Source of the DNA: a virus
Taxonomy: Duplodnaviria; Caudoviricetes
IMG/VR virus record: IMGVR_UViG_3300020686_000001
Span: 1-56,674 of that record
Strand: one strand, 5' to 3'
DNA: 56,674 nucleotides
Shown in pieces: positions 34,288 to 49,800 of this stretch (within the stretch, counting starts at the first letter, position 1; each line of letters starts with the position of its first letter). The translations under genes and the position numbers were made by a program. The notes below the pieces were generated by a model. That model made no database searches, was not told where the DNA came from, and was given only the letters and a program-made list of their open reading frames with translations.

Positions 34288-34845
34288 TTACCACCCTTTT
34301 ATATCATACTTTTTAGCTTTTCCACCATCTTTGCATTTCCATCTTCTTAAAGAAGCTTTTGCACGAGGCGCATCACCTTTGGCATGCTCAACTACCCCTT
34401 CCATTCTTGCACAGAACGACTTTTTCCTAGAGCCACCTTGTGGTTGGGGAGCTTTTAAATGACTCCCTGTCTCTCTATTATACTTTGCTCTACCCTTGTC
34501 GGTAAGCCCTGCACCCTCTTTTACAGACAATTTTTCACCACGACCAACAGATAATGAAACACCACCTTTTTTCATTTTTGCTGTCTTTGCGGATTCCTTA
34601 AATGCCTCTGCAGTAGGAGCGCCTTTACTTCCAACCTTACGCATATGTTCACCTGAACCATGAGCTATACGCTCTTGCTTTTTGTGAATATTTTCGTAAA
34701 GACCGCCTTTGGCAAATTTTTTACCTTTATCGGCACTTGCAAACTCTTTACCAACTTTAGATGGAATTCCAACTTTCTTAGCGAAAGCAGGGTTATGAGC
34801 CACTGCTTCCATTAAGTTATGTTGTTTTAAAGATTTGCTTGGCAT
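34288..34845 (-). CDS. Basic phage protein (DUF6321-like) with KKGG motifs
   Basis: GL..KGRAKYN..TGS.LKAP..RKKSFCARM...SLRRWKC; start MPSKS. Confidence 0.7.
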   Translation of the reverse strand: MPSKSLKQHNLMEAVAHNPAFAKKVGIPSKVGKEFASADKGKKFAKGGLYENIHKKQERIAHGSGEHMRKVGSKGAPTAEAFKESAKTAKMKKGGVSLSVGRGEKLSVKEGAGLTDKGRAKYNRETGSHLKAPQPQGGSRKKSFCARMEGVVEHAKGDAPRAKASLRRWKCKDGGKAKKYDIKGW

Positions 34846-34846
34846 A

Positions 34847-37489
34847 TTAAGCCTGTGATTCTTGCCAAGATAAACGAGCAATGATGGTTGAAGCAGTTGC
34901 TGCGGTATTGAAAGCAACCACATACAAAGTGTCTGGACCATCAGGATATTGACCTGCAAAGCTATTTGACACTGTATTTGTCAATCCACCACCCAAGATA
35001 GCATTACCAATACCTGCTACAGATGTCAAATCTAGCGTTGTTTGACCAGAACTATTGGTAAACGCAGCAGCGATTGACTCACCACCTGTAAATGTTGCTG
35101 TAGTAGCAGTTTGTGATGCAACCTGAACAATAGAACTAGTTACAGTATTGTTTTGGGTAGGAGATTGGAATGCAGTCCAAGTAGCTGTACCTGTTGTGTA
35201 TCCATTCAATACAAGCTGAATCAAGAAAGTTCCTGAAGTTACCACGCCCAATTCACGCAATTGCAATTGAAGGCGGTTAATAACTTCTTTATTTCCTAAT
35301 GTACCAACTTGACCATTGTCAACAGATGGAGCTAAGCGAATTGCCAAAATAGGAACTGCGGTAGTTGCTGGAACTGAAACAGTTGCAGTTGTTCCATAGT
35401 TGTAAATTAATGACACATCGTTTGTAAATCCACCATCCATAATAACGGATGAACCCCAGTGTGAAATAACCGCAACTGAGTCAGGTGGAGCATATTCGAC
35501 TGAAACAGGTGGAATGGCATTGGTTGATGGGAATGCTGCTGTAAATGCAGAAGCTGATCCACCACCTGTAGCGCCACGAGTTACACCTGTAAATTGGTCA
35601 TATGCAAGACCTGAACTACTTGCAAAGTTAATGCCTGTGTAGGTCATGTATTCAATTGCACCATTAGAAGCGCCAGCAGTAACTTTAATAGTTCCACCAT
35701 TTGGATTAAAGCCAGCAGCACTAATAACAGGAATTGTTGTTTGTGAATTTGTAACAGATGAATACAAGCTTGTTACAGCTCCTTGACCATTTGATTCATA
35801 GCGTGATGGCAAGTTTCCTGAGCGCATGTATGCAGCGTATTGAATGTTGTTGTTTTGGAAAGAGTAAACATAAGTAATTGCTCCTCCCTGACCACGAAAA
35901 CCGAATCGTGCCACACCTGCGCCATACCAAGAATAATCGATATACCACATCTGAATCTTGGTTAAATCAAGGTTATATCCTGAAGGACCTGTTCCATCGC
36001 ATGGGTCATACCATGCAGATTGTGGAACTTTGTTATCAATTGTTTTAGAAACCAAAGCATTGGCAATGGTTGCACCACGATATTCGGGGCTAATAAACAT
36101 GCTTGTATCGCTTGCAATACCCATTACACGATAAGATTGACCACGAATAACAATGTAATCACCGGGAGCAATCTGAGTAGTAAATAAAGTACCTGTTCCT
36201 GTAACAGTTCCTGATCCTTGGGTTACGGATACAGTTCCGCTTAACTGATTGGTTGAGTTACGCCATACAGCATATACAGTTTGACCATCAAATTGGAAAA
36301 ATAATCCATTTTGTGCATCAAATAAACCCAATCGATTGCTTGAGCCATACCAGCTATAAGGGCTAACCTTAACAGGCAAACCATTGATAGTTAATGCAGG
36401 GCTTGCTGACGGGGTGACATTGTTATATGTTGTGTAAGTTAATGTTGTAGGGCTAGGAACTGAAGCAATTTTAAATATGCCGTTGTAAGCCGATACAACT
36501 GCGTTTTGAACTTGAATATACGCATTGGTAGTCATGTTATGCGCCCAACGAGTTGTAACAGTCACTGTAGTTCCTGAAGATGTTACAGAGCTGACAAATA
36601 GTTGTGGCTTCATAATTGAGCCAGTGGAGAACTGAATACCTTTACCAGACTGATAACGGAAATAACGACGAGTTTGGCGCATCATCTGTTGATTTGGAAC
36701 AGCAGAGCCAGCAGTAAAGTTTACTGATCCATCATATGCACGAGTTTCTACATATCCTGATGGTCTAGCATAAATAGTAGTTTGGTTAGCAGAGTTAACA
36801 ATTGTTCCTGTTGGAGCGTTTACTACAACAAAAGTAAATGTATTTGCTGTTGGAACAGTTGCTACTACCCAAGAGCCATTAGGTGGATTAGTAGAGGCGG
36901 TAGTGCCAATTACAAAAATTAATGAGCCAGCAGACATGCCATGAGGTGATGTTGTAGTTACTGTACAAGTTGTACCTGTATTAGTAATAGCATTTGCACC
37001 TACTGCAAAACCGCAGTTAGTGTAAAAATTACCTGAATAAACATAAGTAGCTGTTGCGTTATATTGATTTCCTGATGCCACAGCATTTGTGGTTAAAACA
37101 GTAAATGATGTACCGCCTGTAGAAGCAGTTACATACCACCAACCATTGGCGTTTGGATCTAATGCATCCTCAATAAATACAGGAGTTCCAACCGCTACTG
37201 TAGCTGTTGTTGAAACTACAACTGTAGTCGTGCCGTTACCTGTAATTGCAGTAATAGCAAGTGGTGAATTTTGGTTATACCAGCAAGATTGACGATTATT
37301 TTCTAAATCAAGCTGTTCCCATTTAGAAGGCTGTTGACCATATTCAAAGTCAGTATCAATCAATGATTGCGGAGTAGAAACACGCAATTTATCAACTGGA
37401 TCATAGCCTGTTGATAGTTGTGATTTTTGAGTCCGTAACTGGTCTTCAGTTTTGGATGTTGTATTTGTGTAGACGACTAATTGTGACAT
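34847..37489 (-). CDS. Large beta-rich virion structural protein
   Basis: KLRVSTPQSLIDTDFEYG, RQTRRYFRYQSGKG, IDYSWYGAG; repeated T-rich beta modules. Confidence 0.7.
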   Translation of the reverse strand: MSQLVVYTNTTSKTEDQLRTQKSQLSTGYDPVDKLRVSTPQSLIDTDFEYGQQPSKWEQLDLENNRQSCWYNQNSPLAITAITGNGTTTVVVSTTATVAVGTPVFIEDALDPNANGWWYVTASTGGTSFTVLTTNAVASGNQYNATATYVYSGNFYTNCGFAVGANAITNTGTTCTVTTTSPHGMSAGSLIFVIGTTASTNPPNGSWVVATVPTANTFTFVVVNAPTGTIVNSANQTTIYARPSGYVETRAYDGSVNFTAGSAVPNQQMMRQTRRYFRYQSGKGIQFSTGSIMKPQLFVSSVTSSGTTVTVTTRWAHNMTTNAYIQVQNAVVSAYNGIFKIASVPSPTTLTYTTYNNVTPSASPALTINGLPVKVSPYSWYGSSNRLGLFDAQNGLFFQFDGQTVYAVWRNSTNQLSGTVSVTQGSGTVTGTGTLFTTQIAPGDYIVIRGQSYRVMGIASDTSMFISPEYRGATIANALVSKTIDNKVPQSAWYDPCDGTGPSGYNLDLTKIQMWYIDYSWYGAGVARFGFRGQGGAITYVYSFQNNNIQYAAYMRSGNLPSRYESNGQGAVTSLYSSVTNSQTTIPVISAAGFNPNGGTIKVTAGASNGAIEYMTYTGINFASSSGLAYDQFTGVTRGATGGGSASAFTAAFPSTNAIPPVSVEYAPPDSVAVISHWGSSVIMDGGFTNDVSLIYNYGTTATVSVPATTAVPILAIRLAPSVDNGQVGTLGNKEVINRLQLQLRELGVVTSGTFLIQLVLNGYTTGTATWTAFQSPTQNNTVTSSIVQVASQTATTATFTGGESIAAAFTNSSGQTTLDLTSVAGIGNAILGGGLTNTVSNSFAGQYPDGPDTLYVVAFNTAATASTIIARLSWQESQA

Positions 37490-37538
37490 AGCGTTATCCT
37501 AGAAAAAATAGAAATATAAAAGTGAAGCTAGGAACTGC

Positions 37539-37569
37539 AAAAGGTGGGGGATTTCTCCCCCTGCCTTTT
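37539..37569 (-). terminator. Intrinsic terminator-like hairpin
   Basis: GGGGGA-TTTC-TCCCCC flanked by AAAAGG/CCTTTT. Confidence 0.65.
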
Positions 37570-38683
37570 AATAATTACATTTACCGCCTTTTTTCATATG
37601 ATGCTTAGCGTGACCGCCTTTTTTCATAGGATGAGCTTCAATCTTCTCATGACCATGATGATGCTTAGCTACATGCTCATGCATATGGGTAAAACCATGA
37701 TCCCCATGTCCATGAGTCGTGTGATGAGACACATGACCGCCATGAGCATGATGCTTAACATGACCACCTTTTTTGTAACCAGCAGGCTCTTGCTTAATGC
37801 CTTTAATGCCTTTTGGTCGCTGTTTAGGGCTATGAACACCATCGTTCATATCGCTTACAAAACGCTTAGCAACATTGTCAGAAACAGTGCCACCTTTAGC
37901 ATACTTATGAGCATGACCGCCACGCTTGTAACCAACACCTTCAAGGCTACCAGATTTAGTGCTGAAACCTTTAACTTGCTTAGCTCCAACTACTTTATCT
38001 TTCACATTGATTTTTGGTTTCAAAGTCGTTTTTGTTTCAAAAGAATCAATCGCAGCTCCACCATCTTTTAAATGTTTAGCATGCGCTTTGTGGTGCTCGT
38101 GCATCTTTTTGTGATGCGCTGAACCACCTTCTTTATGTTTAGCAGCATGGTGTTTAGCCATATGCTTGTGATGCTCATGCGAACCTTCAGGATGACCAGA
38201 AATATGGTGAACCTTGTGTGCATGACCGCCTTTTTTGTAGCCAGCCAATTCAATATCACCAGTTGTTTTTTTGCGGTCAGGGCGAGTTGCACTGATACCA
38301 CCTAAAAGACCACCGGGAGTATTGTCTTTAGCCATAGCAGCTCTGCCACCACGCTTTAAACCATGATGAGCTTTACCAGCTTTTTCATGCTCATGATGCT
38401 TGAGTTCTTTTTCAAGCATATGAATCTGATGCTCTTCATGACGCTCTTCTTTAGCACTTTCAGCCTTGCCACCACGCTTACGCAAGATTGCAGGAACACC
38501 TGTTGGAGCTACACGCCCACGCATGGCACGACCCATAGGAGCAGCCATAGCCATTGGGTTTCCACCCATAGCCATATGCTTCTTATGAGCGTGACCACCA
38601 CGCTTCATGCCATCGCCTACTTCATCTGCTGATGGTTCGGTTGTGTATTCTTTTGGCTCACGCAAAAACTTTTTAGTTGCCAT
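37568..38683 (-). CDS. His/Lys-rich protein with 13 xxxGG motifs
   Basis: Extreme H/K content; repeated GYK[K/R]GGH.H/K. Confidence 0.75.
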   Translation of the reverse strand: MATKKFLREPKEYTTEPSADEVGDGMKRGGHAHKKHMAMGGNPMAMAAPMGRAMRGRVAPTGVPAILRKRGGKAESAKEERHEEHQIHMLEKELKHHEHEKAGKAHHGLKRGGRAAMAKDNTPGGLLGGISATRPDRKKTTGDIELAGYKKGGHAHKVHHISGHPEGSHEHHKHMAKHHAAKHKEGGSAHHKKMHEHHKAHAKHLKDGGAAIDSFETKTTLKPKINVKDKVVGAKQVKGFSTKSGSLEGVGYKRGGHAHKYAKGGTVSDNVAKRFVSDMNDGVHSPKQRPKGIKGIKQEPAGYKKGGHVKHHAHGGHVSHHTTHGHGDHGFTHMHEHVAKHHHGHEKIEAHPMKKGGHAKHHMKKGGKCNY

Positions 38684-38697
38684 GATTTATTCCCCTA

Positions 38698-39732
38698 TTA
38701 GGATTGAGTTGTGCCGATTGCGCCAGCCAAAGTAGCATTTGGACCAACTGCAATTGCTGGCAACAAAATACCCATTACTAGGCGATAAGTTCCGTTTGCA
38801 TTGCTTGATGGAGCATATGTACCACGAACATCACCTGTAGTAGATGATGAGTTACCTTGAACTGCTGCTACAAAAGTACCTGCGTCTTGAGCCAATGTTT
38901 GCGCCCATTTAACTGAACCAATATAAGCAACATCAGTTACACGAACAGGCAATCCGTAGATATTTGAAATACCGAATGAAACAGTATTTGTATTGCTTAC
39001 GCTAGGTGTAATTGAAACGATTTGCTTAAATGCTTTTTTACCATTGGTGGTAGTAGAAGCAGTTGTTGGAACGCTAACAGCCTCAGTCATTGATTGACCA
39101 TAAATGTCAAAACCTGAGATGGTCATCACAGTTGCTGTAATTGCAGAGCCACTGGTTGTGAAAGATACTGTACGAGGTGTATCCAACTGATAAACAGTTG
39201 TGCCTGCGATGTTAGTAGTCTTAATTACACCAGTACCTGAACCAACAGATAATGTTACTGCTGTACTTGCTGTAGTTGCTTGTGCAGCGCCTAGAGCTGT
39301 TGTAGATGGAGCAGCAGGGGCAACATCAAATACATAAATACGACCCAAAGGACCAACGCCTTGACCCATTGGGCTTGGCATTGCTTGGATTGCAGTGTTA
39401 TAAGTTAAAGATACAGTTGGAAGCGTACCGCCACCACTTGCACTTGTTAAAACTGCAGTGTTTAAAGTTCCCAAAGGAGGGGAAGTGTATAAACCTGCGT
39501 TAGTAATAGATAAACCAGTTACAGCACCGCTAGATACTGTGGTTACAGTTAAAACTACAGGAGTGCCTGTACCGCCTAGAACCTGAAGTGTATCGCCTAC
39601 AGCAAAACCTGTAGAACTAGCACCAGAAACAAGGGTAACAGCATTTGCTGAAGTACCATAGGAAGCAAGCGAACCTGTTCCCATATTTGCTTGGGCTGCG
39701 CCCAAATATAAGTCATCACCGAATTGTGGCAT
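38698..39732 (-). CDS. Capsid-associated structural protein
   Basis: Directly after MCP; GVGPLGR.Y, G.D.YGQ.MTE, GKKAFK, TTGDVRGTY. Confidence 0.7.
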   Translation of the reverse strand: MPQFGDDLYLGAAQANMGTGSLASYGTSANAVTLVSGASSTGFAVGDTLQVLGGTGTPVVLTVTTVSSGAVTGLSITNAGLYTSPPLGTLNTAVLTSASGGGTLPTVSLTYNTAIQAMPSPMGQGVGPLGRIYVFDVAPAAPSTTALGAAQATTASTAVTLSVGSGTGVIKTTNIAGTTVYQLDTPRTVSFTTSGSAITATVMTISGFDIYGQSMTEAVSVPTTASTTTNGKKAFKQIVSITPSVSNTNTVSFGISNIYGLPVRVTDVAYIGSVKWAQTLAQDAGTFVAAVQGNSSSTTGDVRGTYAPSSNANGTYRLVMGILLPAIAVGPNATLAGAIGTTQS

Positions 39733-39765
39733 TTTGTCTTCTCCATGAAAAGTCTGACAAATGAA

Positions 39766-39788
39766 GTGGGGAGTTAAGGTCTCCCCAC
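39766..39788 (-). terminator. Hairpin downstream of the major capsid gene
   Basis: GTGGGGAG-7nt-CTCCCCAC. Confidence 0.65.
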
Positions 39789-39803
39789 ATAACCTTTATT
39801 ACA

Positions 39804-40718
39804 TTAAGCTCCCGGTGTGCCGTACATGGCACGAGGATCAGTCCAACCCACCTGATAACGCTCAGTGGCTTTGTAGCGCATAGAGTCAGTCTCGAAGTCG
39901 CCTTCCATAGTCTTCTCTAATGCACGACGCATTAACAACTTCATACCTTCTGGGGCATCAGTTTGAATCCACCAGTTAGTGGCAGAAGTCAAACGAGAAA
40001 TTACAGATGCGCCTTCAGGCAACAAACCAATGGATTTCACTGGGTTGATGTCGTTGTTGGCTGTACCAGTACGCAATACGCTCTTTAGCAATACTTCAGC
40101 TTGGAACACATTGCCCGGTGCTACTACCAATTTCAATGGTTGCAGACGGATTTTCTTACCATTGTTGTCAACTGCTTGACGAACTTGGATAAGCATCTGT
40201 TCCAAAGAAGTTTGGCTCAATGCTGCTGCTGTTGCCAATTGGTTACTAAAAGTGCCGTTAGCAATTGGGTGAGCTGTGTTGATTAAAGAAACGCCATCAC
40301 CACCAACATAAGAACTGTTAAATGCACGATTCAGCACATTGGCACATAGCAATTCTTTGGTTTCCACCAAGGATTGAGCTAAGTGCTTCGCATATACCTG
40401 ACCCAAGCGGATATGGTCACCATCTTCAACCAATACTTTGGTCAAAGCGAATGCCAATCCAAATACTTGGTAGACATAGCGTTGCAAGAACAGCACACCA
40501 CCCTGTTGATAAGTTACAGGAGAGCCATCAGGTAACTGAGGGGCTGCACCGAAACCATACAATACAGGTTCTTCGTGGTAGTTGCGTGGGATACCAGCAG
40601 ATTCATGGAACACTGTGCTCCATTCGTCAGCTCGTTGGTCATAAACTCCGTCAAATGATTCGTTGAGAATAGGCTCAACAATTGAACGGAAGTCCGTACT
40701 TCTCATTGGGGCTGCCAT
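39804..40718 (-). CDS. Major capsid protein (BPP-1/Mu gpT-like, HK97 fold)
   Basis: GFG.AP..P.G..V.Y, TKE...ANVLN.AF, GDG.SL....HP, DFET...RYKA.ERY..GW.DPR. Confidence 0.88.
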   Translation of the reverse strand: MAAPMRSTDFRSIVEPILNESFDGVYDQRADEWSTVFHESAGIPRNYHEEPVLYGFGAAPQLPDGSPVTYQQGGVLFLQRYVYQVFGLAFALTKVLVEDGDHIRLGQVYAKHLAQSLVETKELLCANVLNRAFNSSYVGGDGVSLINTAHPIANGTFSNQLATAAALSQTSLEQMLIQVRQAVDNNGKKIRLQPLKLVVAPGNVFQAEVLLKSVLRTGTANNDINPVKSIGLLPEGASVISRLTSATNWWIQTDAPEGMKLLMRRALEKTMEGDFETDSMRYKATERYQVGWTDPRAMYGTPGA

Positions 40719-40735
40719 ATTATATTGCTCCTATA

Positions 40736-41368
40736 TTAAACGATTGCTGGGAATTGACCATAGAACTGTGTACCACTCAACTGTACTCGTACAATTGTGT
40801 AAGCATCACCCCATGCGTTGTCCACATTCTGACATAAGTCAACGACACGCATTTGTCCTTGGTTACCATTGGATACCGCAGTGGCTGAACCCAAAGTGGC
40901 AGCAGACAAGCCAGTTGTGGTTGAACCTGCTGTGATGTTAGTGAACAGATATTCACCACCAACCGAGGTTGCAGGCATAGAACCATCAGCTTGGATTTCA
41001 TAAACGATGTTTAGGTCGTTGTAGAAGTAAGCATTGGTTGTAGAGCCTGATAAAGTAGTAGTAGAAGCGGGCCAATAGTTCGACACACGACGACGACCAG
41101 TAGTATCGGTAAATTCAACGCCTTGGAAAGAACCAGTAACTGTGTACTGACCTGTCAAAGTTGTTGCAGCGTTACTAGCTGGTGCTTGTGATGGAACGAT
41201 AGTGCCGTTTGTACCACTGTTTGCAGATTGTCCATAAGAGACAGGTTGTCCCTTAAGGATGTTTGAGCCGTATCCCGAAGGGATTCCGTTAGCCAAAACC
41301 TGCGCTCTTTCCAAGCCAGTTGGGAAGAAGGCAGGGCGTAGACCAAACGGAGCTGATGTTGAAGACAT
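40736..41368 (-). CDS. Capsid decoration/minor head protein
   Basis: APFGLRP start; G.F.GVE.TD..G; YEIQADG; precedes MCP. Confidence 0.65.
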   Translation of the reverse strand: MSSTSAPFGLRPAFFPTGLERAQVLANGIPSGYGSNILKGQPVSYGQSANSGTNGTIVPSQAPASNAATTLTGQYTVTGSFQGVEFTDTTGRRRVSNYWPASTTTLSGSTTNAYFYNDLNIVYEIQADGSMPATSVGGEYLFTNITAGSTTTGLSAATLGSATAVSNGNQGQMRVVDLCQNVDNAWGDAYTIVRVQLSGTQFYGQFPAIV

Positions 41369-41395
41369 AGTAACTCCTTATATTATGGAAAACCC

Positions 41396-41932
41396 TTAGT
41401 TAAAGGTTGGGGCTTCCCGTGTTAGGTCAAAATTCATGCCGTCACCTTCAATTCCACCCAATGCTCTTCCATTACTATCTCGTGCATTTAAGAGTTGTTC
41501 TTGCTGTACTTTGATCTTTTCTTGCTCATCCATAGGGGCATAATGGTGAACTTCAGCCATATAGTCCTGATAGATTTCAATAGGGAGCTTGTAGAGCACC
41601 ATCTCATTAACTGCAACTAAGCCTTCCATTTCACCAGCTTTTACTCTGTAGTTCTCAAAGCCGGGTACTTCCTCAGCTTTCACAGGTATATAGCCAATGC
41701 GTAGGCGTTTGTGAATGGGGTCATATTGGTTGGTTGTTGATAACCAGCACAAGTGGTAGCCCGGAATATCCGGAGCTGTCGGAAGTGATTCTTGGAGAAA
41801 TTCCGAACGGAACATCCTACGACGCTCCTGTGATGAAACCATATGTTCTTCAGGCGCTTTGCGTTGTGCGTCATCTTCTGCACGACTTTCACGACCTGCG
41901 TTAGTATTCTTTTTTAATCTGCTATCGTTCAT
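41396..41932 (-). CDS. Conserved head-module protein
   Basis: LP..P.IPGYHLCWLST, RL.IGY.PV, MVLYKLP. Confidence 0.7.
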   Translation of the reverse strand: MNDSRLKKNTNAGRESRAEDDAQRKAPEEHMVSSQERRRMFRSEFLQESLPTAPDIPGYHLCWLSTTNQYDPIHKRLRIGYIPVKAEEVPGFENYRVKAGEMEGLVAVNEMVLYKLPIEIYQDYMAEVHHYAPMDEQEKIKVQQEQLLNARDSNGRALGGIEGDGMNFDLTREAPTFN

Positions 41933-41934
41933 AA

Positions 41935-42930
41935 TCAATTCCTTCCTTTGTTTTCTCTGTCCCACGCACGAAAATTGTTAATCATCTTCATTTTTCGCAC
42001 TGGATCATCCCAAGCTCCTGCCTCTTTAATGGCAGCAACTCTATCAGGGCTTAATACATAAGCACCTGTTTTAGCTGTTGCAGTAGATTCTCTACCTGAA
42101 CTTGTCACTACAGACCTCGGTCTTTGATTACGAACACTAGGCTCATTATATCCACGATTTGCTTTTTGTGGTATATATTTTTCGAGTCGGTCATCGAGTT
42201 CATCCCAATAATCTTGAGTTGATGGATCGTAACCTTCCTCGGTTAATTTCTTGTCAATTTTCTGAGCAATTTCAGAATCTAGGTCTTTCCCATGTGGGTC
42301 ATACCATTTATTCTGCTCCATCCAATCAGCAGCAAGTTTCTGAACCATAGGATCAGGAACATCGATGTTTTGTTTAGGAGGCTGGGAAGCTTGTTTAGTG
42401 GCTTGAACTTTAAGGTTTTGCAATGCTTCTTGCTTACGCTTGGCTTCGTACCACATCTCTTGGGCTTTAGTTAAGCTCATGCCATCGTTTGATTCTACAG
42501 CTTCCTGCATCTTCATCTTGGCATACTCAACTTGAACGCCTGCATCTTCAATGGCTTTATTGACTTGAGCCAGCTCAGATCCTGATGTTTTCTTCTCAAT
42601 AACAGCAAGACGCTCAGCAAGAGCTTCATTCTGTTTGCGAAGAGCGGTAATCAGGTGGTTTGATTCACGAGCCTTTTCACGATGGAGTTGCTTTTTAAGC
42701 TTTCTCTCTTCACGACGAGCTTCACGAATCTTTTCACGCTCAGGATCTACTTCTTCTCCTTTTGCAGGTTCATCATCAAAATCATCGTTTCCACGAAAAT
42801 CTGATTCGGGTTTACCCTTATTTTCTTCAGGAGCATCATCAATGATGATTTCCCCTTCAGGCAATTCAACAACAGCAGAACCATCTTGCTCTTCGTTGAC
42901 TTGCATTTCCATCTTATCACTTGGTGTCAT
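41935..42930 (-). CDS. Capsid scaffolding protein (putative)
   Basis: Acidic N-terminus, long coiled coil, W...N.WY, GYDP...YW.ELD.RL; position. Confidence 0.65.
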   Translation of the reverse strand: MTPSDKMEMQVNEEQDGSAVVELPEGEIIIDDAPEENKGKPESDFRGNDDFDDEPAKGEEVDPEREKIREARREERKLKKQLHREKARESNHLITALRKQNEALAERLAVIEKKTSGSELAQVNKAIEDAGVQVEYAKMKMQEAVESNDGMSLTKAQEMWYEAKRKQEALQNLKVQATKQASQPPKQNIDVPDPMVQKLAADWMEQNKWYDPHGKDLDSEIAQKIDKKLTEEGYDPSTQDYWDELDDRLEKYIPQKANRGYNEPSVRNQRPRSVVTSSGRESTATAKTGAYVLSPDRVAAIKEAGAWDDPVRKMKMINNFRAWDRENKGRN

Positions 42931-42949
42931 ACAGTTTTCCTTTCAAAAC

Positions 42950-43438
42950 TTATAAAAATGCTTTAATTTCACGAGGGTCACCCGTGACTTTGCCAATAAG
43001 TTCATGGTCATTAAAGAAGGTAAAGAGCGACTTGCCTTTTGCCCCGTTATCATCTTTAAAGTCAATCTCCCATCGGTCACCGCCCCATTTAGGAACACGA
43101 ACAAAATCTCCTACTTGCGCCCATGCACCTTCGGGCCAAGCTTCCATCGTGTCACGCTTTCTAAATGCCAATGGTCCAATGGCAATCACTTTGCCAATCA
43201 TGGTGTTCCATTTCTCGGTTTCTTTTACTTCTTCAGGAATGTAAATCCCTGCTGTTGTAACCTTCTCTTTGACAGCTCTCAATTGAACAAGAACTCTCGC
43301 TCCATACGGAGACATTAGAGGGTCAACATTTGGAAAAGCTTCTTCCAAAGTCTGTTCGACATCAAAAATCTTTGGGTCTACAGGCTCTGATGCATCTTTA
43401 AAAATCTGAGCAACAATGTCATTTCTCGACATTTTCAT
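42950..43438 (-). CDS. groES: GroES/Cpn10-like co-chaperonin
   Basis: P.G.RVLV....KEK.T.AGI.IP...E.....GKVIAIGP...VGD.V...K.GG......HELIG. Confidence 0.8.
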   Translation of the reverse strand: MKMSRNDIVAQIFKDASEPVDPKIFDVEQTLEEAFPNVDPLMSPYGARVLVQLRAVKEKVTTAGIYIPEEVKETEKWNTMIGKVIAIGPLAFRKRDTMEAWPEGAWAQVGDFVRVPKWGGDRWEIDFKDDNGAKGKSLFTFFNDHELIGKVTGDPREIKAFL

Positions 43439-43607
43439 CCTCTTCTAACAGGTTATTAATAATGTTTAAAGCTTCTTGCAAGCCTTGGTGCTGTCCAACA
43501 TATCTTTGGTAACTTTCAAAATTTGCAAATCTTCCGTTAACCATTGAATCAACAATTTCTTGTTGTTTTAGTTTGACAGCGTGAATCAAGCCGTTAACTA
43601 GATCCAT
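43419..43607 (-). CDS. Conserved small head-module protein
   Basis: G...NFESYQ.YVG..QGL..A. Confidence 0.7.
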   Translation of the reverse strand: MDLVNGLIHAVKLKQQEIVDSMVNGRFANFESYQRYVGQHQGLQEALNIINNLLEEDENVEK

Positions 43608-43966
43608 TAACGACCTCTGGCTGAAGGCTTCTTCCCTACTGCTATTGCAATCATCAAACCTTGTTTCTTAGCTCCACCACCTTTTTTCATTGTGGCAATG
43701 CTATGAGGAACAGGTTTAGTGATTTTTGGTGTTACACCCTTAGCAGGAAGCTTTGCAATTCCCTTCTCAGGATGAGCGCCAATCTTGTTGACATTCTTTT
43801 GATGAGTAATTTCATCAGGCTGACCTGAATCGCTACCATCAATAGAGTCATTCTTTACACCGCCACCTTTGGCGTACTTCTTAATCTTTCCACCTTTTTT
43901 AAAGTGGTTTGCTTCGCCTTCGCCATACATGGCAATGCGCTTTTGCATTCTGATTGCTTCGGACAT
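43607..43966 (-). CDS. Basic protein with three xxKGG motifs
   Basis: FKKGG, YAKGG, MKKGG; AAGGAG RBS. Confidence 0.7.
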   Translation of the reverse strand: MSEAIRMQKRIAMYGEGEANHFKKGGKIKKYAKGGGVKNDSIDGSDSGQPDEITHQKNVNKIGAHPEKGIAKLPAKGVTPKITKPVPHSIATMKKGGGAKKQGLMIAIAVGKKPSARGR

Positions 43967-43977
43967 GAGGTTCTCCT

Positions 43978-44256
43978 TTAGAATCCGTGTTTGTGTTTAC
44001 CAGTTTTACCGCCTTTGAAGCCATGCCAATCTTTTTCAATCTTGCCACCCTTCTTCCTACCAACTACACTGCGAATGCCACGCTCAATATCTGACTGCAT
44101 ACCTTCACCCTTGGCAATCTTGTCTAAGTTTTTACGGGCTTGCTCATTCTGAGCCTCTGTACCCATAACCTTATCTTTTAAATCTTTGGCTTGGCTAGAA
44201 ATAAAGTTTCCAGCTCTGCCTAACATGCTTTCTTGGTTTTCTACTTCATTAGGCAT
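43978..44256 (-). CDS. Small basic protein with KKGG motif
   Basis: Start MPNEVENQ after AAGGAG; RKKGG. Confidence 0.65.
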   Translation of the reverse strand: MPNEVENQESMLGRAGNFISSQAKDLKDKVMGTEAQNEQARKNLDKIAKGEGMQSDIERGIRSVVGRKKGGKIEKDWHGFKGGKTGKHKHGF

Positions 44257-46855
44257 TTGGTTCTCCTTGTGGTGGTTGTGCCTGTTGAGCTTGAGCTTGT
44301 TGCAAGATGCCTTGCTGTTGAGCTTGAGCTGATTGTTGTTGCATTTGTTGTAAATGCTCCATATTGCTTTGTTGCATAGCTTGCTCTTGCTGTGCTTGGG
44401 CTTGCTTGGCTTCGAATTGTTTCTCAATCGTCATGGTGTTGATGTCATGAGTTAATTTAGCGCCCTCAATCTGTTGCTGGCTCACTATTTGAGCTTCTTT
44501 ATCCTGAGAGTCTTGCTGTTGCTTCTGAGCTTTTAGGTTTAAATCAGCCTTGTCGTAAGCAGCCTTACGCTGAGTCTCAGCCATAGCTGTTTGCTGTAAA
44601 GCTTGAACTTGAGCTTGAACATTTGGATCAAGCGGTTGAGTTGACTTCATCTTTTGCATCATTTCAGTCATTTGCTGAATTACAGGCATAACTTGTTTCA
44701 TGATTTCTTGAGAATCCACATGAACATGTTGTCCTGCAATAGCCAAAAGCTTTTGAGCTTCAGGAATAGTCTTCTTAACTGCCATAACATCATATGGTTT
44801 GCCAAGATGTTGGGTTGCATACTTGCCAACGCTTTCAAGATAGAACAAGCTTAGGTGTTGCTTAATGTGTTCTAAGGCGTTAGGGATAAATGCAGGAGCA
44901 ATAATTGGATTAGCGCCATAAAGTGGATCTTTAGCAAACTCTGTATGGCTTAACAGGTGAGATAAATGGTCTTGACCGGGGAACGCACCTACAGGCTTTG
45001 CTAATGTCAATGAAATGTTCTCCAAAGCAGGGTTCATATCTTTAACATCATCTTTATCAGGCAGAACATCGTTGATGTCAGGCAATTTAATCTGTTTTAA
45101 GATGCGTTTTTCAACTGCAAGGCGGTCATAAAGGTCAGGATTTGCTTGAGCACGAGCTGCTAATGTCTGAATTTGAGCATAACGCTGTGATTCAGCAAAG
45201 ATATGAGGGTCAGATACAGGAACAATGTCTGCATTTGTCTCAAAGTCTTCTTTAGTAATCTTGAGGTCGGCAACAACTTCGCCCCTCATCTGCTCTTCAA
45301 GATACCAACGATTTAATCGAGCCAAAATCTTAAATACACGCTTCTGAGAATCATGCAAACGAGCGTGAATCGAACTAAATACAGCAGCACCTTGCTCAAT
45401 AAGGGCTTGTGTTGTGCCAACAGGCGCTTGAGAGTTGACATCTGCAATCTTTTCCTCTGAAGTTGTGACTACACCTTTGGCTGCCTCTGTTAACCAGCCT
45501 AATAATTGGAATAAAACAGGGCTTGGTGGGTTAAATGGCACAGGCATAGCGATTTTACGAACATCATCTACTCCCGGTGCGCCTTCAATCTCGCTTACTT
45601 GGGTGACATCGATAACAGTTGACTGACCTGAAATCTTAGCGCCCTTAAGCTTGAGCATAGTAGGTGCGTTATTGATGTGAGCGCTGTCCATAAGTGCTCG
45701 TAAAGCGCCAGTAAGAGCAGCGCTAAGACCGCCAATAAGGTGAGGCAAGCCAATAGCGTAAGCACCACGCCAAGGAATAAACTTGAATTCAATAAGCCAG
45801 TCGAGTTTCGTAAAGGTTTCATCGCCATCTTCCCAGTTTCTATACAAGCCAACAGGCTCACTCTCATTTTCATCAATCATAAGAATGTATGGCGCTCTTT
45901 CACCCTTGGAAAACTTGTCGTCTTCCAGCTCTAGCCATGTATAAATGTGGAAAACACGACGAATGCCATCAATATTGGATGACTCACTGCGCTTACCTTC
46001 AATCTTATTGTTAGCTTTTTCAGCTTTTGTCTCATCAGGCTCTTCAGGAATGCGATAAACATCGGTATCACGATACAAACCGCTTGCAACACGCAGGTCA
46101 TACTCTTCCTGAGTAATGTCTTGAACCTCTGTAACACGCATTGCAGTGTAGAAATTACCTGCTGCAAAGGGTAAATAAATATTATCGATAGGAACGAACT
46201 CAGCGCATGGGCGCTTTTTCTGCTCGTCGTACCACATCTTGAAGTATTGTGAGCCACCTAAAGGCAATTGGGTGAACATTTGCTCCTGCTCATCTCGATA
46301 TTCTTCGATTTGCTCAGTCAACTGCCAATTCATGTAATCACGCTTGCGGTCAGCCTTCTCACGCTTCTCTTCGGTTACATCTCCGATGATTTTGCTTCGT
46401 ACTGGTCCGTCAGGTGGAAATAGTTCCTTGATTGCTCTAGCAGCAAAATCAACGCAGGACTCTGCCATAACTGGGTGGACAACTTTGCTTGCACCCATGA
46501 ACTGTGCGCCTCCGGGTGCGTCATCGCCAAGCCCTGTGCGTCTAATGCCTTCTTCATACTTTTTATCTCTATCTTCCCTAGCTTCCTTGTCCTTTTCAAT
46601 CAGGTCAAGGTATTTCATTGTTATTTTGTTTAAATCATAAGAATCAATAGTGTCAGCCAAGTTTTCATAGAAATCAGGCGACTCTTCAGGTCCTTTTAAG
46701 TCTTCCAAATGCACGATAGCTGAGCCATCAGGCATCTCTTCAACATCTGTACCTTCTACATCATCAAAGTATTCAACCAAAGATTCATCATCATCACCTT
46801 CAATAGGATCAATGTGTCGGTTGTAGTCTTGTGGGATGGGCATTTCTATAGCCAT
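44249..46855 (-). CDS. Portal protein
   Basis: GAS.VVHP.MAE.CVDF.AR, LPL.GS.YFK, APVGTT.AL.EQG...SSIHARLH; Q-rich C-terminal barrel. Confidence 0.88.
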   Translation of the reverse strand: MAIEMPIPQDYNRHIDPIEGDDDESLVEYFDDVEGTDVEEMPDGSAIVHLEDLKGPEESPDFYENLADTIDSYDLNKITMKYLDLIEKDKEAREDRDKKYEEGIRRTGLGDDAPGGAQFMGASKVVHPVMAESCVDFAARAIKELFPPDGPVRSKIIGDVTEEKREKADRKRDYMNWQLTEQIEEYRDEQEQMFTQLPLGGSQYFKMWYDEQKKRPCAEFVPIDNIYLPFAAGNFYTAMRVTEVQDITQEEYDLRVASGLYRDTDVYRIPEEPDETKAEKANNKIEGKRSESSNIDGIRRVFHIYTWLELEDDKFSKGERAPYILMIDENESEPVGLYRNWEDGDETFTKLDWLIEFKFIPWRGAYAIGLPHLIGGLSAALTGALRALMDSAHINNAPTMLKLKGAKISGQSTVIDVTQVSEIEGAPGVDDVRKIAMPVPFNPPSPVLFQLLGWLTEAAKGVVTTSEEKIADVNSQAPVGTTQALIEQGAAVFSSIHARLHDSQKRVFKILARLNRWYLEEQMRGEVVADLKITKEDFETNADIVPVSDPHIFAESQRYAQIQTLAARAQANPDLYDRLAVEKRILKQIKLPDINDVLPDKDDVKDMNPALENISLTLAKPVGAFPGQDHLSHLLSHTEFAKDPLYGANPIIAPAFIPNALEHIKQHLSLFYLESVGKYATQHLGKPYDVMAVKKTIPEAQKLLAIAGQHVHVDSQEIMKQVMPVIQQMTEMMQKMKSTQPLDPNVQAQVQALQQTAMAETQRKAAYDKADLNLKAQKQQQDSQDKEAQIVSQQQIEGAKLTHDINTMTIEKQFEAKQAQAQQEQAMQQSNMEHLQQMQQQSAQAQQQGILQQAQAQQAQPPQGEPNA

Positions 46856-49800
46856 TATTTCTTCCTTGTTAATGCTAAGCGCATTTCATCGATACTAACA
46901 TTGCCACCTTTTTTACGATTGAGTGGGCTATCAGGGTTAAATGGGTTCATTATTCCCGGTGTAAATCCTGCACCACCTCCTGATGGGCGTGAAGTTGGAA
47001 CAGGTTTATCGCTTCCCTTGTAAGGGTCATACTTATTGCGGTTGACTATCTCTTCTTGACCTTGACGAATGCGCTCAGCGTTATCAATCTTGAACTGTTC
47101 GTATGGAGTTAATTTTGGTTGACCGCCTTCATTCATGCGTCTTTTGCGAATAGCTCCACCACGCTTATGTCCTCGTGGATCTTCACCCATTCCTGCTTCA
47201 GGTGGGCGATAGTTAGGGAATCGTAAAGCATTCCAATTTCTGATAATGTTAAACGCTTCTTCTTTTTGAGGCTCAGTAAAGTCTGAAAATGCATTACGAC
47301 CTCTAACTCCATTTATTACTGCCACTAATGCTTCACCATCAGTAGCAGGATTGTATGTTTGACTTGTTAAAGAATGAATAATTCTACGATGAGCTAACTC
47401 AGGTAGCGTGTTATTGCCAATTAAAACTTCACCAATTCGTACATCTCTTGGGTCTCCAAACTGTCTAAATGCACCTCTATCACCTTCTAAATAGTTAACT
47501 GTTGCCAATCTTACAAGTGATTGGTCCACAGCATTTAAAGGTCCTTGTTGTACATTTTGATTAGAAGTTGGTGCAATACCTTCATTGCGAATTCTAGTTA
47601 AAACAGCTTCTACCGCTTGAGGAGAGCTTCCTGCTAATCCATATCGGTCTAAGTCATCTCCAATTACTGTAGTCAAATTAGACCTAGTTAATGGATTATT
47701 TTGAATGTCTTCAAGCATATATCCATGTCGCTGACGAATCTCACCGCTAACTGCTTCATAAGCTCTTTGTCTAATAGCTTCAACTTGCTGACGATTCTCA
47801 GGTAGATTATCTATACGATTTTCAATGTGTTGACGGATATAAGACAGAACACGATTGGCATCGTCTTCAGTAGCAAGATTGTTAGTAACAATCGTTGGAA
47901 GATTATCATAATCTTGATAACGCTCTAAAGACCTATTTAAGCCCTCTTCATTATCAGGAAGACTTCTAATTACAGAATTGATACCTTCAGTCAATGATTG
48001 AACTTGTGCTTGTCTTTGAGTTAAACTTTGATGCGCTCCAACAGGACTAACTTCCATAGCCACATCTCTAGGAGTGGGCATAGCTTCTGTAGGAGTAGGC
48101 AATGCAGGAGCATTCTGTCCATTTACATGGTTTGCATTGGCTTCAGTAATAGCATCTCTTACCTGCCTTAAACTGTTGCGAACCTCTACAGGAAGATTGT
48201 TGTCATTTGATGCAATGCCTATTTGTTGAGCAAAACGCAATGGTCTTTCATTTACAGCAATATTAGGGTTATCCCTAGAAAATTGCGCTATGGCATCAGC
48301 AACAACAGTTCCAACCTGTTGTCTTGTATCTGCTCCATAGTTTTGTTCTACTCGGTCAATCGTGCCATGCAATGCATCAGAAAATGCTTGTATTGGTAAA
48401 CCAATTTGATTGGTTGCTTGGGCAGGCTGAGCAGGCGCAGGATGGCGTATCATCTGACGCAATGCTCTTTCATGAATCTGCAAAAGATGTCTGTATTCTT
48501 CAACATCTGCTCTATCCATGCGTGGATGGTCATCCATAATGGTTTGAGGAACAGCATGATTTCTTCTATCGCTAAGACGAGTAATCAAGTGTTGTGGGTC
48601 ATTAAATATTTCACTATTCAAATTACCCAAGTCTTCCTGATAGGCTTGCCAAGATGCAGTATGGGTTTGATGAGATGCCAATGGAGTACGAGTACCATTT
48701 CTTTGTAATACATCAGCATAATGAGCCAATTGACCAATTGCATCAGCATGACGCTGAACAGCATTTGCAAGTTCATCAGCTTCGGAACGAGAAGCTAAAC
48801 CATAGTCTCCAATATGACCATTATTTATTTGCTCAACAATATCGCTTAAATTGCGATGTAACTGATAATCACTTATTGGGTTATTGTGGTTTCCCAATTG
48901 CTCTTGATTATTCAATATGCTTCTGTAAGCACTGTAAGGTCTTGGATCTAAAGAACCAATCGAATATGCCAATGGATTAAACCTACTACCATCCTCAACA
49001 ATCTCTCCAGCATCTAACTGACGCTGTGGAGTAAGGTTCATAGAACTTAAGTTCTGCATCACAATATTGCGCTCTGTAGCTTCACGCCCAGATGGTGGGG
49101 ATGAACGAACTGCTGGAACTGGAGGATTATCCTGTTTGTATTGTGCTACAGCTTGTTTACCTTGATCTAGGGTAATGAATCGGTCACCATCAAGAGTATC
49201 AGTAATGTATTTGCGGATTTCAGGATATTTACCACGCTCTACATTCAGGTCATTTAACATGGTATGCAAAGAATTGCCTTCACTAGCATCATAAACACCA
49301 TGCTTGTGAATGTTTGATGTGAAATCAACTTTGTCTTTAATACTGTTCAGGAAGTCAGCAAGCTCAGGAGCATATTCTTTGTTGCCCCCGTTTTGGTATC
49401 CACTGACATAACCCATTTGATAGCCACCATCGCTAGTTCTATCTAATTCAACAGTTATCTGTGGTAATCCTGTTTTTGCATCACGAATGTCTGCAATATC
49501 CAAATCACCATCTGCGACACGCTCAACATATGAGCTATCTTCGCCAGCATTCTTGGTAGGTCGCTTTGTTACAGGATCATTCATTGCAATGTATTGACGC
49601 TCTTTACCTGTAAACAGATTCTTTGTTCCTGCTCCACGACCACCTTGACCGATACAATGGTCAAGAACAAAAGTAATATCAGACAGATTTTGTTTAATCT
49701 GTTCAGGCGTCATATTTTCATCGGTAATCCAAAGAACTTTCCCTTTTTCTCCTACAGGCTCAGTTGGAAAATCGTTAAGAACATTTTTAAAATAATTGTC

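Follow-up and report, generated by a model that had tools for sequence, protein, structure and literature searches.

A short peptide motif recurs in otherwise unrelated proteins of an uncultured, podovirus-like freshwater phage and of hundreds of its relatives, and the evidence supports its being a shared signal that is selected at the protein level. The window analysed is the whole of record IMGVR_UViG_3300020686_000001, a complete podovirus-like genome of 56.7 kb (56,674 nucleotides), and all carriers of the motif are encoded within its head gene block. The pattern x-[K/A]-x-G-G has the fuller consensus Phi-[K/A]-x-G-G-x-[A/V]. Judging from sequence patterns, we tentatively propose that it is best described as a lineage-specific short linear motif in disordered stretches, and that it may mark internal head proteins with a common label for docking or packaging. 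Only for very few systems, chief among them T4, is it understood in detail how tailed phages select the proteins carried inside the head; in this phage one simple, seemingly portable label is found on a whole group of candidate internal proteins. If it is an address label, it would provide a handle for finding the injected proteins of uncultured phages, for testing a new packaging rule and for loading foreign proteins into capsids.

Carrier proteins and motif counts

The carrier of highest valency is a His/Lys/Gly-rich protein of 371 aa (37568..38683, minus strand; pI 10.1) with 13 copies. Copies 1-5 lie at 38594-38608, 38561-38575, 38468-38482, 38345-38359 and 38225-38239, copies 6-9 at 38123-38137, 38057-38071, 37916-37930 and 37889-37903, and copies 10-13 at 37763-37777, 37736-37750, 37613-37627 and 37583-37597, all on the minus strand. 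The protein ends in ..MKKGGKCNY, and its family comprises 418 clusters, none of them named and none with a Pfam domain. A second carrier, of 185 aa (34288..34845, minus strand), consists of three small basic modules, A1, B and DUF6321, each of which matches a separate PHROG or Pfam family, and its motifs FAKGG (34702-34716), MKKGG (34561-34575) and CKDGG (34321-34335) join and end these modules. Its start is most likely the ATG at 34845, which gives 185 aa, and not the TTG at 34959. Residues 112-169 belong to DUF6321 (PF19846; 59.8 bits against a cut-off of 28.5), a match that names the third module and not the motif; the Atlas clusters of DUF6321 are all viral, and a literature search under that name found nothing. 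In the AF2 model of this protein, the motif falls in low-confidence linkers (pLDDT < 50 at residues 41-54, 81-115 and 174-185).

Directly downstream of the portal gene lies a basic protein of 119 aa (43607..43966, minus strand) with FKKGG (43889-43903), YAKGG (43862-43876) and MKKGG (43676-43690), which makes three copies, or five with overlapping GGG registers. A basic protein of 92 aa (43978..44256, minus strand; start most likely at 44256) has one copy, RKKGG (44044-44058), and also FKGG, one residue shorter, near its C-terminus; no homologue of it is found in 80 IMG/VR loci at 1e-5. The fifth carrier is the 1669-aa pre-portal protein, p1669 (whole gene 46855-51864, minus strand), whose basic C-terminal end (46855..47169) contains the pair HKRGG (47155-47169) and MNEGG (47122-47136), then RKKGG (46903-46917), after which comes a C-terminal helix, NVSIDEMRLALTRKK. 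The last 110 residues have a pI of 10.2, against 5.6 for the whole protein, and hold two copies of x-[K/A]-x-G-G, HKRGG and RKKGG. MNEGG, counted as a third copy in the sequence-only reading, has N at position 2 and falls outside the written pattern; it stands 11 residues after HKRGG, the usual place of a second half-site. For p1669, the best PDB sequence match has an E value of 0.13, the Atlas gives no usable match, and Pfam and PHROGs give nothing. The 371-, 119- and 92-aa proteins match no Pfam family at E<=10, and hence do not match PF10685, which we take to be the bacterial KGG stress repeat. The carriers have a pI of 9.7-10.3, are Gly-rich and are predicted to be disordered. Between them lie three acidic or motif-free neighbours, all on the minus strand: the portal protein (44249..46855; phrog_1216; pI 4.8), with motif carriers on both flanks; the major capsid protein (39804..40718; PF25209, Mu gpT-like), which is motif-free and a candidate docking surface; and an acidic, scaffold-like coiled-coil protein of 331 aa (41935..42930; pI 5.1), a candidate partner that is conserved in Caulobacter phage RW and in MW202545.

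In its hydrophobic-first version, [FYML]-[KA]-x-G-G, the motif occurs 15 times in the five head-block carriers (2436 aa) and never in the other 69 ORFs (15873 aa), a contrast whose P value is inflated because the carriers were picked after the motif had been seen. The observation made in the sequence-only reading, for which proteome-wide enrichment was named as a check, is confirmed. Of the looser pattern x-[K/A]-x-G-G, 10 further copies are scattered over the 69 remaining ORFs. One of them is DAPGG in the portal, and the motif's reported absence from the portal therefore holds for the hydrophobic-first version and fails for the loose one. Six unrelated carriers had been claimed. Five stand, with 13, 3, 3, 1 and 2 copies, and the sixth, the protein of ORF 14545, lies outside the set, its AREGG having R at position 2.

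Within-protein shuffles that keep composition (pattern [FYMLHRC][KA]xGG, 5000 shuffles per protein) give an expectation of 0.55 copies for the 371-aa protein against 13 observed, a count reached in 0 of 5000. The 119-aa protein has 3 against 0.11 expected (1/5000) and the 185-aa protein 3 against 0.20 (2/5000), while the single copy in the 92-aa protein, against 0.08 expected (400/5000), is not significant alone. The families of these proteins add to this. That of the 119-aa protein has 78 motifs in total against 3.1 expected, and in a 13-sequence alignment its invariant columns are the three motifs, the N-terminal helix and the final Arg. Among 120 homologues of the 371-aa protein, identity is 0.68 in motif columns against 0.50 in other columns, and motif columns are more conserved than other Gly columns (0.83 against 0.58). 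Together with the count of 15 against 0 and with the relatives, which serve as independent replication, the shuffles make the repetition across late proteins stronger than first noted. They also weigh against the possibility that the motif serves no recognition and is either a passive flexible linker or a by-product of composition in low-complexity sequence rich in Lys and Gly. That GG is flexible and that the carriers are rich in K and G would fit such a by-product, which the shuffles and the motif-column conservation make very unlikely. The codons of the 23 motif sites differ, and the variation in the Gly codons therefore places selection at the protein level. A DNA-level repeat or an internal Shine-Dalgarno site is ruled out by the same codon differences, no GGAGG being formed.

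Module junctions, C-termini and possible maturation cleavage

The motif is placed at module junctions and at C-termini. When 16 relatives of the 185-aa protein are aligned, GG is invariant at both junctions, although K replaces the hydrophobic residue at junction 2 in five of the 16. Only five residues separate the conserved module ends, and the motif lies exactly there. The same modules are separate genes in DSL-LC05, S-RIP2, phiKZ-like phages and some IMG/VR relatives, and relatives freely fuse and split them at the motif junctions; where they are split into separate ORFs, five of six upstream ORFs keep the motif and a short tail. The second G at junction 1 doubles as part of the conserved beginning of module B (..G-LYxNIH), and stand-alone ORFs without the remainder of the motif still have it, a point in favour of the passive-linker reading. 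The stand-alone modules of DSL-LC05 have no motif, and therefore the modules can work without it. A1, B and DUF6321 are widespread in cyanophages, pelagiphages and jumbo phages. Motif-rich proteins terminate in ..KKGG followed by 3-5 residues, and the short tails beyond the last site are conserved, often finishing in Cys or Cys-x-aromatic. A strict pattern picks out an ending of GG followed by an amphipathic helix in 11 of 39 pre-portal proteins, and about nine more show variants when inspected by eye.

This placement also suits maturation cleavage, a rather unlikely reading in which an unrecognised protease, either a novel phage enzyme or a host enzyme, would process the carriers as polyproteins, at GG or beside it. 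Small basic modules and His/Lys-rich peptides of 10-45 residues would thereby be released inside the head, as in adenovirus. The motif sits exactly at the boundaries of modules that are separate genes elsewhere, and fusing or splitting at the junction looks selectively neutral. It is also absent from the capsid family (0 motifs in 73 unique relatives against 7.2 expected) and from the p210, p189 and terminase families (0 against 6.8, 2.9 and 1.3), counts in which the sequences are not independent.

African swine fever virus (ASFV) and poxviruses mature at GG/AG sites, and the GG sites of adenovirus and ASFV have the consensus (M/I/L)-X-G-G-X, cut after the second G, with the hydrophobic residue at P4. 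The combination of a hydrophobic residue with GG in the present motif resembles such sites, but the residue stands three positions before the first G, which the logo described below makes P5 if the cut follows GG, one position further away. Excerpts of PMC4246237 report that the adenovirus protease cuts Met-Arg-Gly-Gly substrates, that some substrates of this enzyme have two sites 8 residues apart, and that in its cofactor pVIc, a C-terminal peptide, Cys10' and Phe11' are conserved. Measured against those excerpts, the likeness to adenovirus core maturation (pVII, pX/Mu, pVI/pVIc) lies in basic, DNA-associated proteins with hydrophobic-x-G-G sites, in tandem sites a few residues apart and in a short basic C-terminal peptide that ends in Cys and an aromatic residue, as the tails beyond the last GG often do (PMC4246237). 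The setting differs, this being a tailed phage with an HK97-type capsid. Should cleavage occur at the motif, an unrecognised protease would be implied, and with it a phage whose core matures in an adenovirus-like way.

The search for such a protease speaks against cleavage. No prohead or GG-specific protease is found by Pfam or PHROGs, even at E<=1, nor any clan CE or other cysteine protease in the 74 ORFs. The only peptidase family matched is the tail-spike Peptidase_S74 chaperone (74 ORFs at E<=0.001, 28 unknown ORFs at E<=1), in a profile search that could miss a very divergent enzyme. The product p189 (41396-41932) was considered as a hidden protease and rejected: its profile matches nothing in the PDB; its AF2 model (pLDDT 67) has no Foldseek match in the PDB at E<=0.001 and matches no protease-like fold; BFVD gives only uncharacterised phage proteins; and the best hit of a wide structural search (Z 4.9) is a single helix. 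The p210 profile has no PDB match either. No accessory gene was found that is common to motif-bearing genomes and absent from motif-free ones. With neither a protease gene nor a motif-tracking accessory gene found, any phage-encoded partner must therefore be a core component. The conserved tails and the constraint on the second residue after GG also count against cleavage.

Two other candidates were set aside. The motif as a substrate of the 2OG-Fe(II) oxygenase (25825-26454), a lysyl-hydroxylase idea, was rejected because most complete motif-bearing genomes lack PF13759, which is present in only three of 20 related virus records and in two of the 15 that are at least 90% complete. Mimicry of the GroES mobile loop, which requires a hydrophobic triplet, was dropped by inspection, there being no such triplet after GG.

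Consensus, paired sites and possible stickers

A logo anchored only on GG dipeptides, 1011 of them, has its information peaks at position -3 (Y/M/L/F), at -2 (K/A) and two residues beyond GG (A/V). Position -3 holds 233 of 411 Tyr (57%) against 9 of 1081 Val, and both Ile and Val are excluded from the hydrophobic position. Motifs are often paired: gaps of 7-13 aa number 201, where 98 are expected, and in 135 of the 201 a K-type copy precedes an A-type one. Many pre-portal copies are acidic (MAEGG, MADGG, FAEGG) and lie within acidic surroundings. Position-specific preferences, directional pairs and the presence of the motif in acidic giant proteins all argue further against a passive linker.

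These features bear equally on whether the motif is a self-sufficient sticker without a dedicated receptor, its aromatic residues or Met, next to Lys and Gly, binding DNA and each other. The genome would then be condensed, or an internal protein-DNA body formed, with high-valency arrays as scaffold and low-valency proteins as clients. The basic, Gly-rich and disordered character of the carriers fits such a sticker, as do the concentration of Tyr in the motif with exclusion of Ile and Val, the split in valency between arrays (3-16 copies) and other carriers (1-3), the quick change of copy number and spacers, and the fact that no gene tracks the motif. RGG-box and sticker-spacer regions, and the KGG repeat, likewise combine a basic residue with Gly-Gly and nearby aromatics, repeated in disordered sequence; here, in contrast to the RGG box, the basic residue is Lys and not Arg, the hydrophobic residue is in a fixed register and the pairs are directional. 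The sticker reading is nevertheless unlikely. It sits poorly with the acidic copies, generic stickers would not be expected to show a fixed K-then-A order and narrow pair spacing, and the constrained residue two positions beyond GG suggests a shaped binding site. Still more doubtful is a receptor-free assembly code, in which multivalent Tyr/Met-Lys-Gly-Gly stickers on a hub of 3-16 copies would co-condense with DNA and recruit the proteins of 1-3 copies. If true, this very abundant freshwater lineage would load its cargo and condense its genome through scaffold-client phase behaviour, with no need of a dedicated receptor or protease, and adenovirus core chromatin would have an equivalent in a phage.

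The proposed docking label, relatives and known systems

As a docking or packaging label, the motif would link and end a 'beads-on-a-string' series of small basic modules whose genes lie between those for the terminase and the tail adaptor. It would also be borne, mostly close to the C-terminus, by large variable proteins whose genes directly precede that of the portal. The carriers would be internal head (cargo or ejection) proteins, and the motif would be their common recognition element for uptake into the procapsid, docking to the capsid protein, the scaffold or the portal, core components of the head found in all these phages. Proteins of the 371-aa type, with 3-16 copies, may be multivalent hubs, and those with 1-3 copies passengers; cleavage might follow docking, as in T4. 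Counted for the label are the sharing of a motif without detectable homology, its terminal placement, recognition on both sides of GG, directional pairs, motif columns invariant amid divergence, varied codons, low-confidence AF2 linkers, the failure to find a protease gene or a motif-tracking accessory gene, head-block location and the T4 precedent. Counted against it are the 13-16 address labels on one protein, which are unusual, the motif-free phages RW and L171/L172, the motif-free modules of DSL-LC05 and the K at junction 2; exact junction placement and free fusing and splitting fit cleavage at least as well.

The sequence-only reading had proposed either a phage-wide tag that routes cargo into the procapsid or a set of processing sites. 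What survives is a signal under selection at the protein level, located where modules meet and at C-termini, as would be expected of either. Its processing half is weakened by the protease search, the lack of a tracking accessory gene and the conserved tails, and its simple-tag half by up to 16 copies in one protein and by RW, a close relative with the same capsid and no motif.

The motif turns up in matching gene slots of MW202545, of DSL-LC04 and of about 100 IMG/VR relatives, with sequence between copies that diverges fast. In the pre-portal slot, p1669, an 890-aa protein of MW202545 and a PcfJ-like 825-aa protein of DSL-LC04 all carry it, and BLASTP detects no homology between their bodies; one or more copies are present in 34 of 38 IMG/VR pre-portal proteins. 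Identity across relatives is 86-96% for the capsid protein against 24-64% for the motif-rich protein. RW (77% identical in capsid) and L171/L172 (69-70%) lack the motif despite a similar capsid, and among capsid lineages 39-70% identical it is found in 15 of 43 loci, all 15 at 40-47%. Motif distribution does not track capsid phylogeny. In tblastn searches of 50,697 GenBank phages, the 371-aa protein finds nothing and its MW202545 homologue only itself. The literature listed for 'KKGG' with 'phage' includes, to judge from the listing, nothing on phage proteins.

The known system closest in logic is that of T4, whose capsid-targeting sequence (in IPI-III and Alt) is a single N-terminal peptide of about ten residues; it attaches to the scaffolding core, and the gp21 prohead protease cuts it off at L/I-x-E. 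The motif here is instead internal or C-terminal, repeated up to 16 times, often bipartite and of another sequence. Excerpts of PMC3012670 describe the T4 internal proteins as diverse, with a capsid targeting sequence as their only common feature. The likeness is that of a short peptide as sole common feature of diverse, mostly small basic head-internal proteins (PMC3012670, as excerpted), the carriers here being known from their genes. As in T4, one short peptide is common to unrelated proteins (the five carriers, and the pre-portal proteins of three phages), while the N-terminal position is not shared and no prohead protease family is detected.

Encapsulin cargo-loading peptides, which are short, mostly C-terminal and usually present once per cargo, dock unrelated cargo to the inner face of an HK97-fold shell. 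The motif may work alike, with a consensus that differs from their Gly/Ser/Leu-rich GSLxIGSL type. The capsid protein of the present phage falls into at least 7856 clusters at 90% identity, and the phage lineage is extremely common in lakes.

The motif and its setting in the genome

Five proteins encoded in the head gene block of this phage have in common what is very probably a selected short linear motif in disordered sequence, read on both sides of a GG dipeptide and often bipartite. Small basic modules are joined by it or end in it, and large, variable proteins have it attached.

At 56,674 bp the window spans a complete virus record, which has a direct terminal repeat of 99 bp and lacks tRNA genes. 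The late genes lie on the minus strand and begin with the two terminase genes, small (53488-53955) and large (51902-53314). The pre-portal slot between the large terminase and the portal (44249-46855) is occupied by a 1669-aa protein (p1669, 46855-51864), and the portal is followed by three small proteins (92, 119 and 62 aa) ahead of a GroES-like gene (42950-43438). These are followed by a scaffold-like 331-aa acidic coiled-coil protein (41935-42930), by p189 (41396-41932) and p210, by the major capsid protein (39804-40718), by p344, and by a 371-aa protein rich in His, Lys and Gly (37568-38683). An 880-aa virion structural protein comes next, and a 185-aa protein (34288-34845) stands directly before the SU10-type adaptor (33226-34284), after which come tail and ejection genes.

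Several neighboring features deserve mention. The small terminase gene is directly preceded by a GIY-YIG endonuclease ORF (53928-54404). The GroES-like gene has an N-terminal extension and adjoins the genes for small basic proteins close to the portal; this setting recurs in this lineage, in Caulobacter phage RW, HTVC023P, CRP-901 and DSL-LC04, and in an unrelated lake phage, DSL-LC05. A predicted metal-dependent hydrolase (18507-19274; PF10118, E 3.6e-37) is encoded amid the tail and ejection genes and has no counterpart in MW202545, RW or the fetched genomes G011, G012, G015 and G016. An 1170-aa protein (14545-18057) consists largely of low-complexity sequence rich in Gly, Ala, Ser, Thr and Asn. 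Its final ~90 residues are conserved, have a weak match to a tape-measure PHROG and are common to MW202545, RW, G011, G012 and G016; the protein is probably an ejection protein.

In GenBank the closest records are those of uncultured phage MW202545 and of Caulobacter phages RW, KcrB, RLK and GB2A, and farther relatives include pelagiphages HTVC023P/HTVC027P, roseophages CRP-901/CRP-902 and lake phage DSL-LC04. The lineage is very common: at least 7856 clusters of capsid proteins at 90% identity match at E<=1e-10. The capsid protein is conserved far above neighboring genes. Identities to MW202545 and RW are 87/77% for the capsid, 60/47% for the portal, 61/42% for the large terminase and 39/29% for the scaffold-like protein. 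Capsid identity is 86–96% across 80 IMG/VR loci retrieved through this protein.

The motif, with the fuller consensus Phi-[K/A]-x-G-G-x-[A/V], is counted here in the form x-[K/A]-x-G-G: 13 copies lie in the 371-aa protein, three each in the 185-aa and 119-aa proteins, one in the 92-aa protein and two within the C-terminal 110 residues of p1669. In these five carriers the copies lie where a sequence-only reading had placed them. That reading also listed AREGG in the ORF at 14545, but the R at its second position puts this site outside the reading's own pattern. MNEGG, with N at position 2, does not match the strict pattern but stands as a variant 11 residues beyond HKRGG. The motif had further been reported as unseen in the portal; the loose form x[KA]xGG has 10 copies outside the carriers, DAPGG in the portal among them, whereas the core pattern [FYML]-[KA]-x-G-G is found 15 times in the 2436 aa of the five carriers and never in the 15,873 aa of the 69 other ORFs. 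Because the carriers were chosen post hoc, shuffling and replication are the real test. The proposed enrichment was borne out by within-protein shuffles, scored with [FYMLHRC][KA]xGG, for the 371-aa protein (13 copies vs 0.55 expected; 13 reached in 0/5000), the 119-aa protein (1/5000) and the 185-aa protein (2/5000), while the 92-aa protein by itself is not significantly enriched.

The 23 sites in the window are written with different codons, which means that the signal is under selection as protein sequence. At all 23, the first Gly of the GG is encoded by GGT or GGC; in five late genes, GGA and GGG account for 87 of 302 Gly codons. This may be an avoidance of Shine-Dalgarno-like AAGGAGG after Lys codons.

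A logo anchored on isolated GG dipeptides alone (n=1011, from 70 motif-rich proteins) has Y (22%), M (15%), L (12%) and F (9%) three residues before the GG, with Tyr at only 1.7% of the overall composition; K (46%) and A (28%) two residues before it; and A and V (24% each), plus M and I, at the second residue after it. Within motif-rich proteins, the -3 position takes up 233/411 Tyr, 100/342 Phe and 123/620 Leu residues, and rarely Ile (7/489) or Val (9/1081). A passive linker is contradicted by such position-specific preferences and is highly improbable.

Copies are also paired. Among 653 gaps between adjacent copies in 107 proteins, 201 span 7–13 residues against 98 expected under random placement, and 43 span 14–25 residues against 128. 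Classed by the residue two before the GG (484 K-type and 271 A-type copies), 135 of the close pairs run K-type then A-type, 25 are KK, 24 AA and 17 AK. Examples in the window are YKRGGHAHKYAKGG, FKKGGKIKKYAKGG and HKRGG..MNEGG.

Recurrence among relatives

In MW202545 (capsid 87% identical), the 371-aa slot holds a 449-aa protein with ~12 copies that is not His-rich; a 171-aa protein has the C-terminus FKKGGKVNW, and an 890-aa pre-portal protein has several copies. The 80 IMG/VR loci contain 71 ORFs (70 unique) of <600 aa with at least five copies of the broad pattern, the maximum being 16. Compared with shuffles, motifs number 449 vs 27.4 expected in the p371 family, 82 vs 12.6 in the p185 family, 78 vs 3.1 in the p119 family and 14 vs 2.1 in the p1669 family. 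Structural-protein families appear depleted (capsid 0 vs 7.2, p210 0 vs 6.8, p189 0 vs 2.9, portal 2 vs 5.0, large terminase 0 vs 1.3), which is only suggestive because the sequences of a family are related to one another.

Across 120 homologues of the 371-aa protein, identity to the window is 0.68 in motif columns vs 0.50 elsewhere, and motif Gly is identical in 0.83 vs 0.58 for other Gly; conserved blocks are also found beyond the motif. The invariant columns of the 119-aa family are its three motifs, the N-terminal helix and the final Arg. Identity of motif-rich proteins drops to 24–64% where the capsids of the phages stay 86–96% identical.

RW has the whole head block in common with the window (capsid 77%, portal 47%) and has no motif-rich protein, no large protein in the terminase-portal slot and no ORF with two core copies. 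The fetched stretches of HTVC023P and CRP-901 have no motif enrichment. In DSL-LC04 (capsid 41% identical) the motif is found in the corresponding gene slots, namely in a PcfJ-like pre-portal protein, two small post-portal proteins and one small pre-adaptor protein. Capsid lineages 39–70% identical to the window were reached through a distant representative. Of their loci, 43 reach 3 kb or more downstream of the capsid, and 15 of these contain an ORF with three or more core copies. All 15 have capsid identities of 40–47%, and the closest loci (69–70% and 50%) have no such ORF; the motif is therefore widespread yet patchy relative to capsid phylogeny. Several small basic proteins of distant capsid lineages (loci L186, L211, L224, L225, L249) have a second recurrent ending beyond the last motif pair, ..S-x-RADGIA-x-[KR]G-[KR]T-[KR]G..C.

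None of the 418 clusters of the 371-aa family contains a named member, and among 50,697 GenBank phage records the family has no homologue except in MW202545. Full-text searches found no literature on DUF6321 or on such a GG motif in phages. The Dishui Lake study, in the portions covered here, presents DSL-LC04 and DSL-LC05 as metagenome-assembled genomes and does not mention virion proteomics (PMC10611076).

Protein ends and module junctions

Pre-portal products measure 1669 aa in the window, 890 aa in MW202545 (L001 21151-23823) and 825 aa in DSL-LC04 (PcfJ-like; L091 3704-6181), and no homology was detected among these three except at the C-terminal end. Within the IMG/VR clade they are mosaics with regions in common. 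A frequent ending is Phi-KKGG-x-V..SIDEMRLALTRKK, which a strict pattern detects in 11/39 pre-portal proteins, with variants in ~9 more by eye. At least one copy is present in 34/38 IMG/VR pre-portal proteins, and many copies are acidic (MAEGG, MADGG). A stretch of p1669, ..DHCIGQGG.., recalls ..RHCVGGY.. of the PcfJ-like protein, with no Pfam match.

Motif-rich proteins end in ..KKRGGSxKC or ..KKGGKCNY, and in the 119-aa family the C-terminus is a hydrophobic stretch followed by GRGR. Carriers very often end in Cys, or have Cys 1–2 residues ahead of a final aromatic residue (..KC, ..KCNY, ..CPCW, ..LCY, ..RFC; e.g., window 37568-37582 and many IMG/VR loci). DUF6321 proteins of the window's clade end in ..RWKC-PGW, and a 42-aa post-portal protein of RW also ends in ..GKC.

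The 185-aa protein consists of three small basic modules, A1, B and DUF6321, with separate matches to phrog_16759, phrog_16028 and DUF6321, which occur elsewhere as stand-alone genes. A1 is a 52–58-aa ORF in phiKZ-like jumbo phage KTN4 (L085 3501-3677) and Klebsiella phage Eowyn (L086 3001-3159, annotated "structural protein"), with the pattern MPSKSxKQHNxM..KVGK[DE]F..ADK. B is a 53-aa ORF in DSL-LC05, and DUF6321 proteins of DSL-LC05, S-RIP2 and DSL-LC04 are 87–100 aa with the C-terminus ..RWKC. Modules B and DUF6321 are present in 584 phage records, chiefly cyanophages and pelagiphages, and other viral clusters have DUF6321 fused to DUF5872, cytidylyltransferase-like or DUF192 domains.

In the window protein, FAKGG and MKKGG are the sole residues separating the conserved ends of adjacent modules, and CKDGG begins where DUF6321 naturally ends. 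The pre-adaptor proteins of 71 IMG/VR relatives are mosaics built from six or more module types, variably fused or split, with junctions almost always of the form ..K-Phi-[KA]-x-GG. Where a junction is split, 5/6 upstream ORFs keep the motif and a 6–10-residue tail with W or Y last. In an alignment of 16 relatives GG is invariant at both junctions; at junction 1 the second G doubles as part of module B's conserved start, and at junction 2 the hydrophobic position is K in 5/16. The AF2 model of the 185-aa protein is poor (mean pLDDT 51.5) and places helices in the modules; pLDDT is <50 at residues 41–54, 81–115 and 174–185, which are the three motif sites.

A cleavage site would account for this junction placement, and for the free fusing and splitting of modules, at least as well as a label would, and it has a parallel in adenovirus core maturation as outlined in one account (PMC4246237). 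No enzyme was found for it, however: Pfam and PHROGs searches, even when relaxed to E<=1, gave no protease besides the tail-spike S74 chaperone. Cleavage is rather unlikely.

Possible readers of the motif

We tentatively favor, as a possibility, a docking or packaging label, by which a core head component would recognize the motif on its carriers and so dock or package them. This is favored because unrelated carriers have the motif in common, split ORFs keep it at the C-terminus and the tails beyond it are conserved; in addition, pairs have a direction and a span of ~15 residues, and neither a protease nor an accessory gene tracks it. Phage T4 offers the closest precedent: its diverse internal proteins are described, in the part of the source used, as having only a capsid targeting sequence in common (PMC3012670). 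The motif would belong with such shared signals on phage internal proteins, known as a kind, with a putative function.

The 74 proteins of the window were profiled phyletically across motif-bearing MW202545, G011 and G012 and motif-free or motif-weak RW, G015 and G016. None of them occurs in every genome of the former group while missing from every genome of the latter, and the motif-bearing group has only core head and tail genes in common. A 2OG-Fe(II) oxygenase first looked linked to the motif, yet it is found in just 3/20 related records. The absence of any gene tracking the motif also fits a receptor-free sticker that condenses DNA, as do the basic, Tyr-focused, multivalent arrays. The acidic copies and the K-then-A order are left unexplained by a sticker, which is improbable.

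Among window proteins examined as possible trans-acting factors, p1669 has no database match and p210 none in the PDB. The p189 protein, which is conserved throughout the capsid family, including RW, has invariant His60, Cys62, Asp71 and His129/His130, but no PDB sequence match and no recognizable fold or family.
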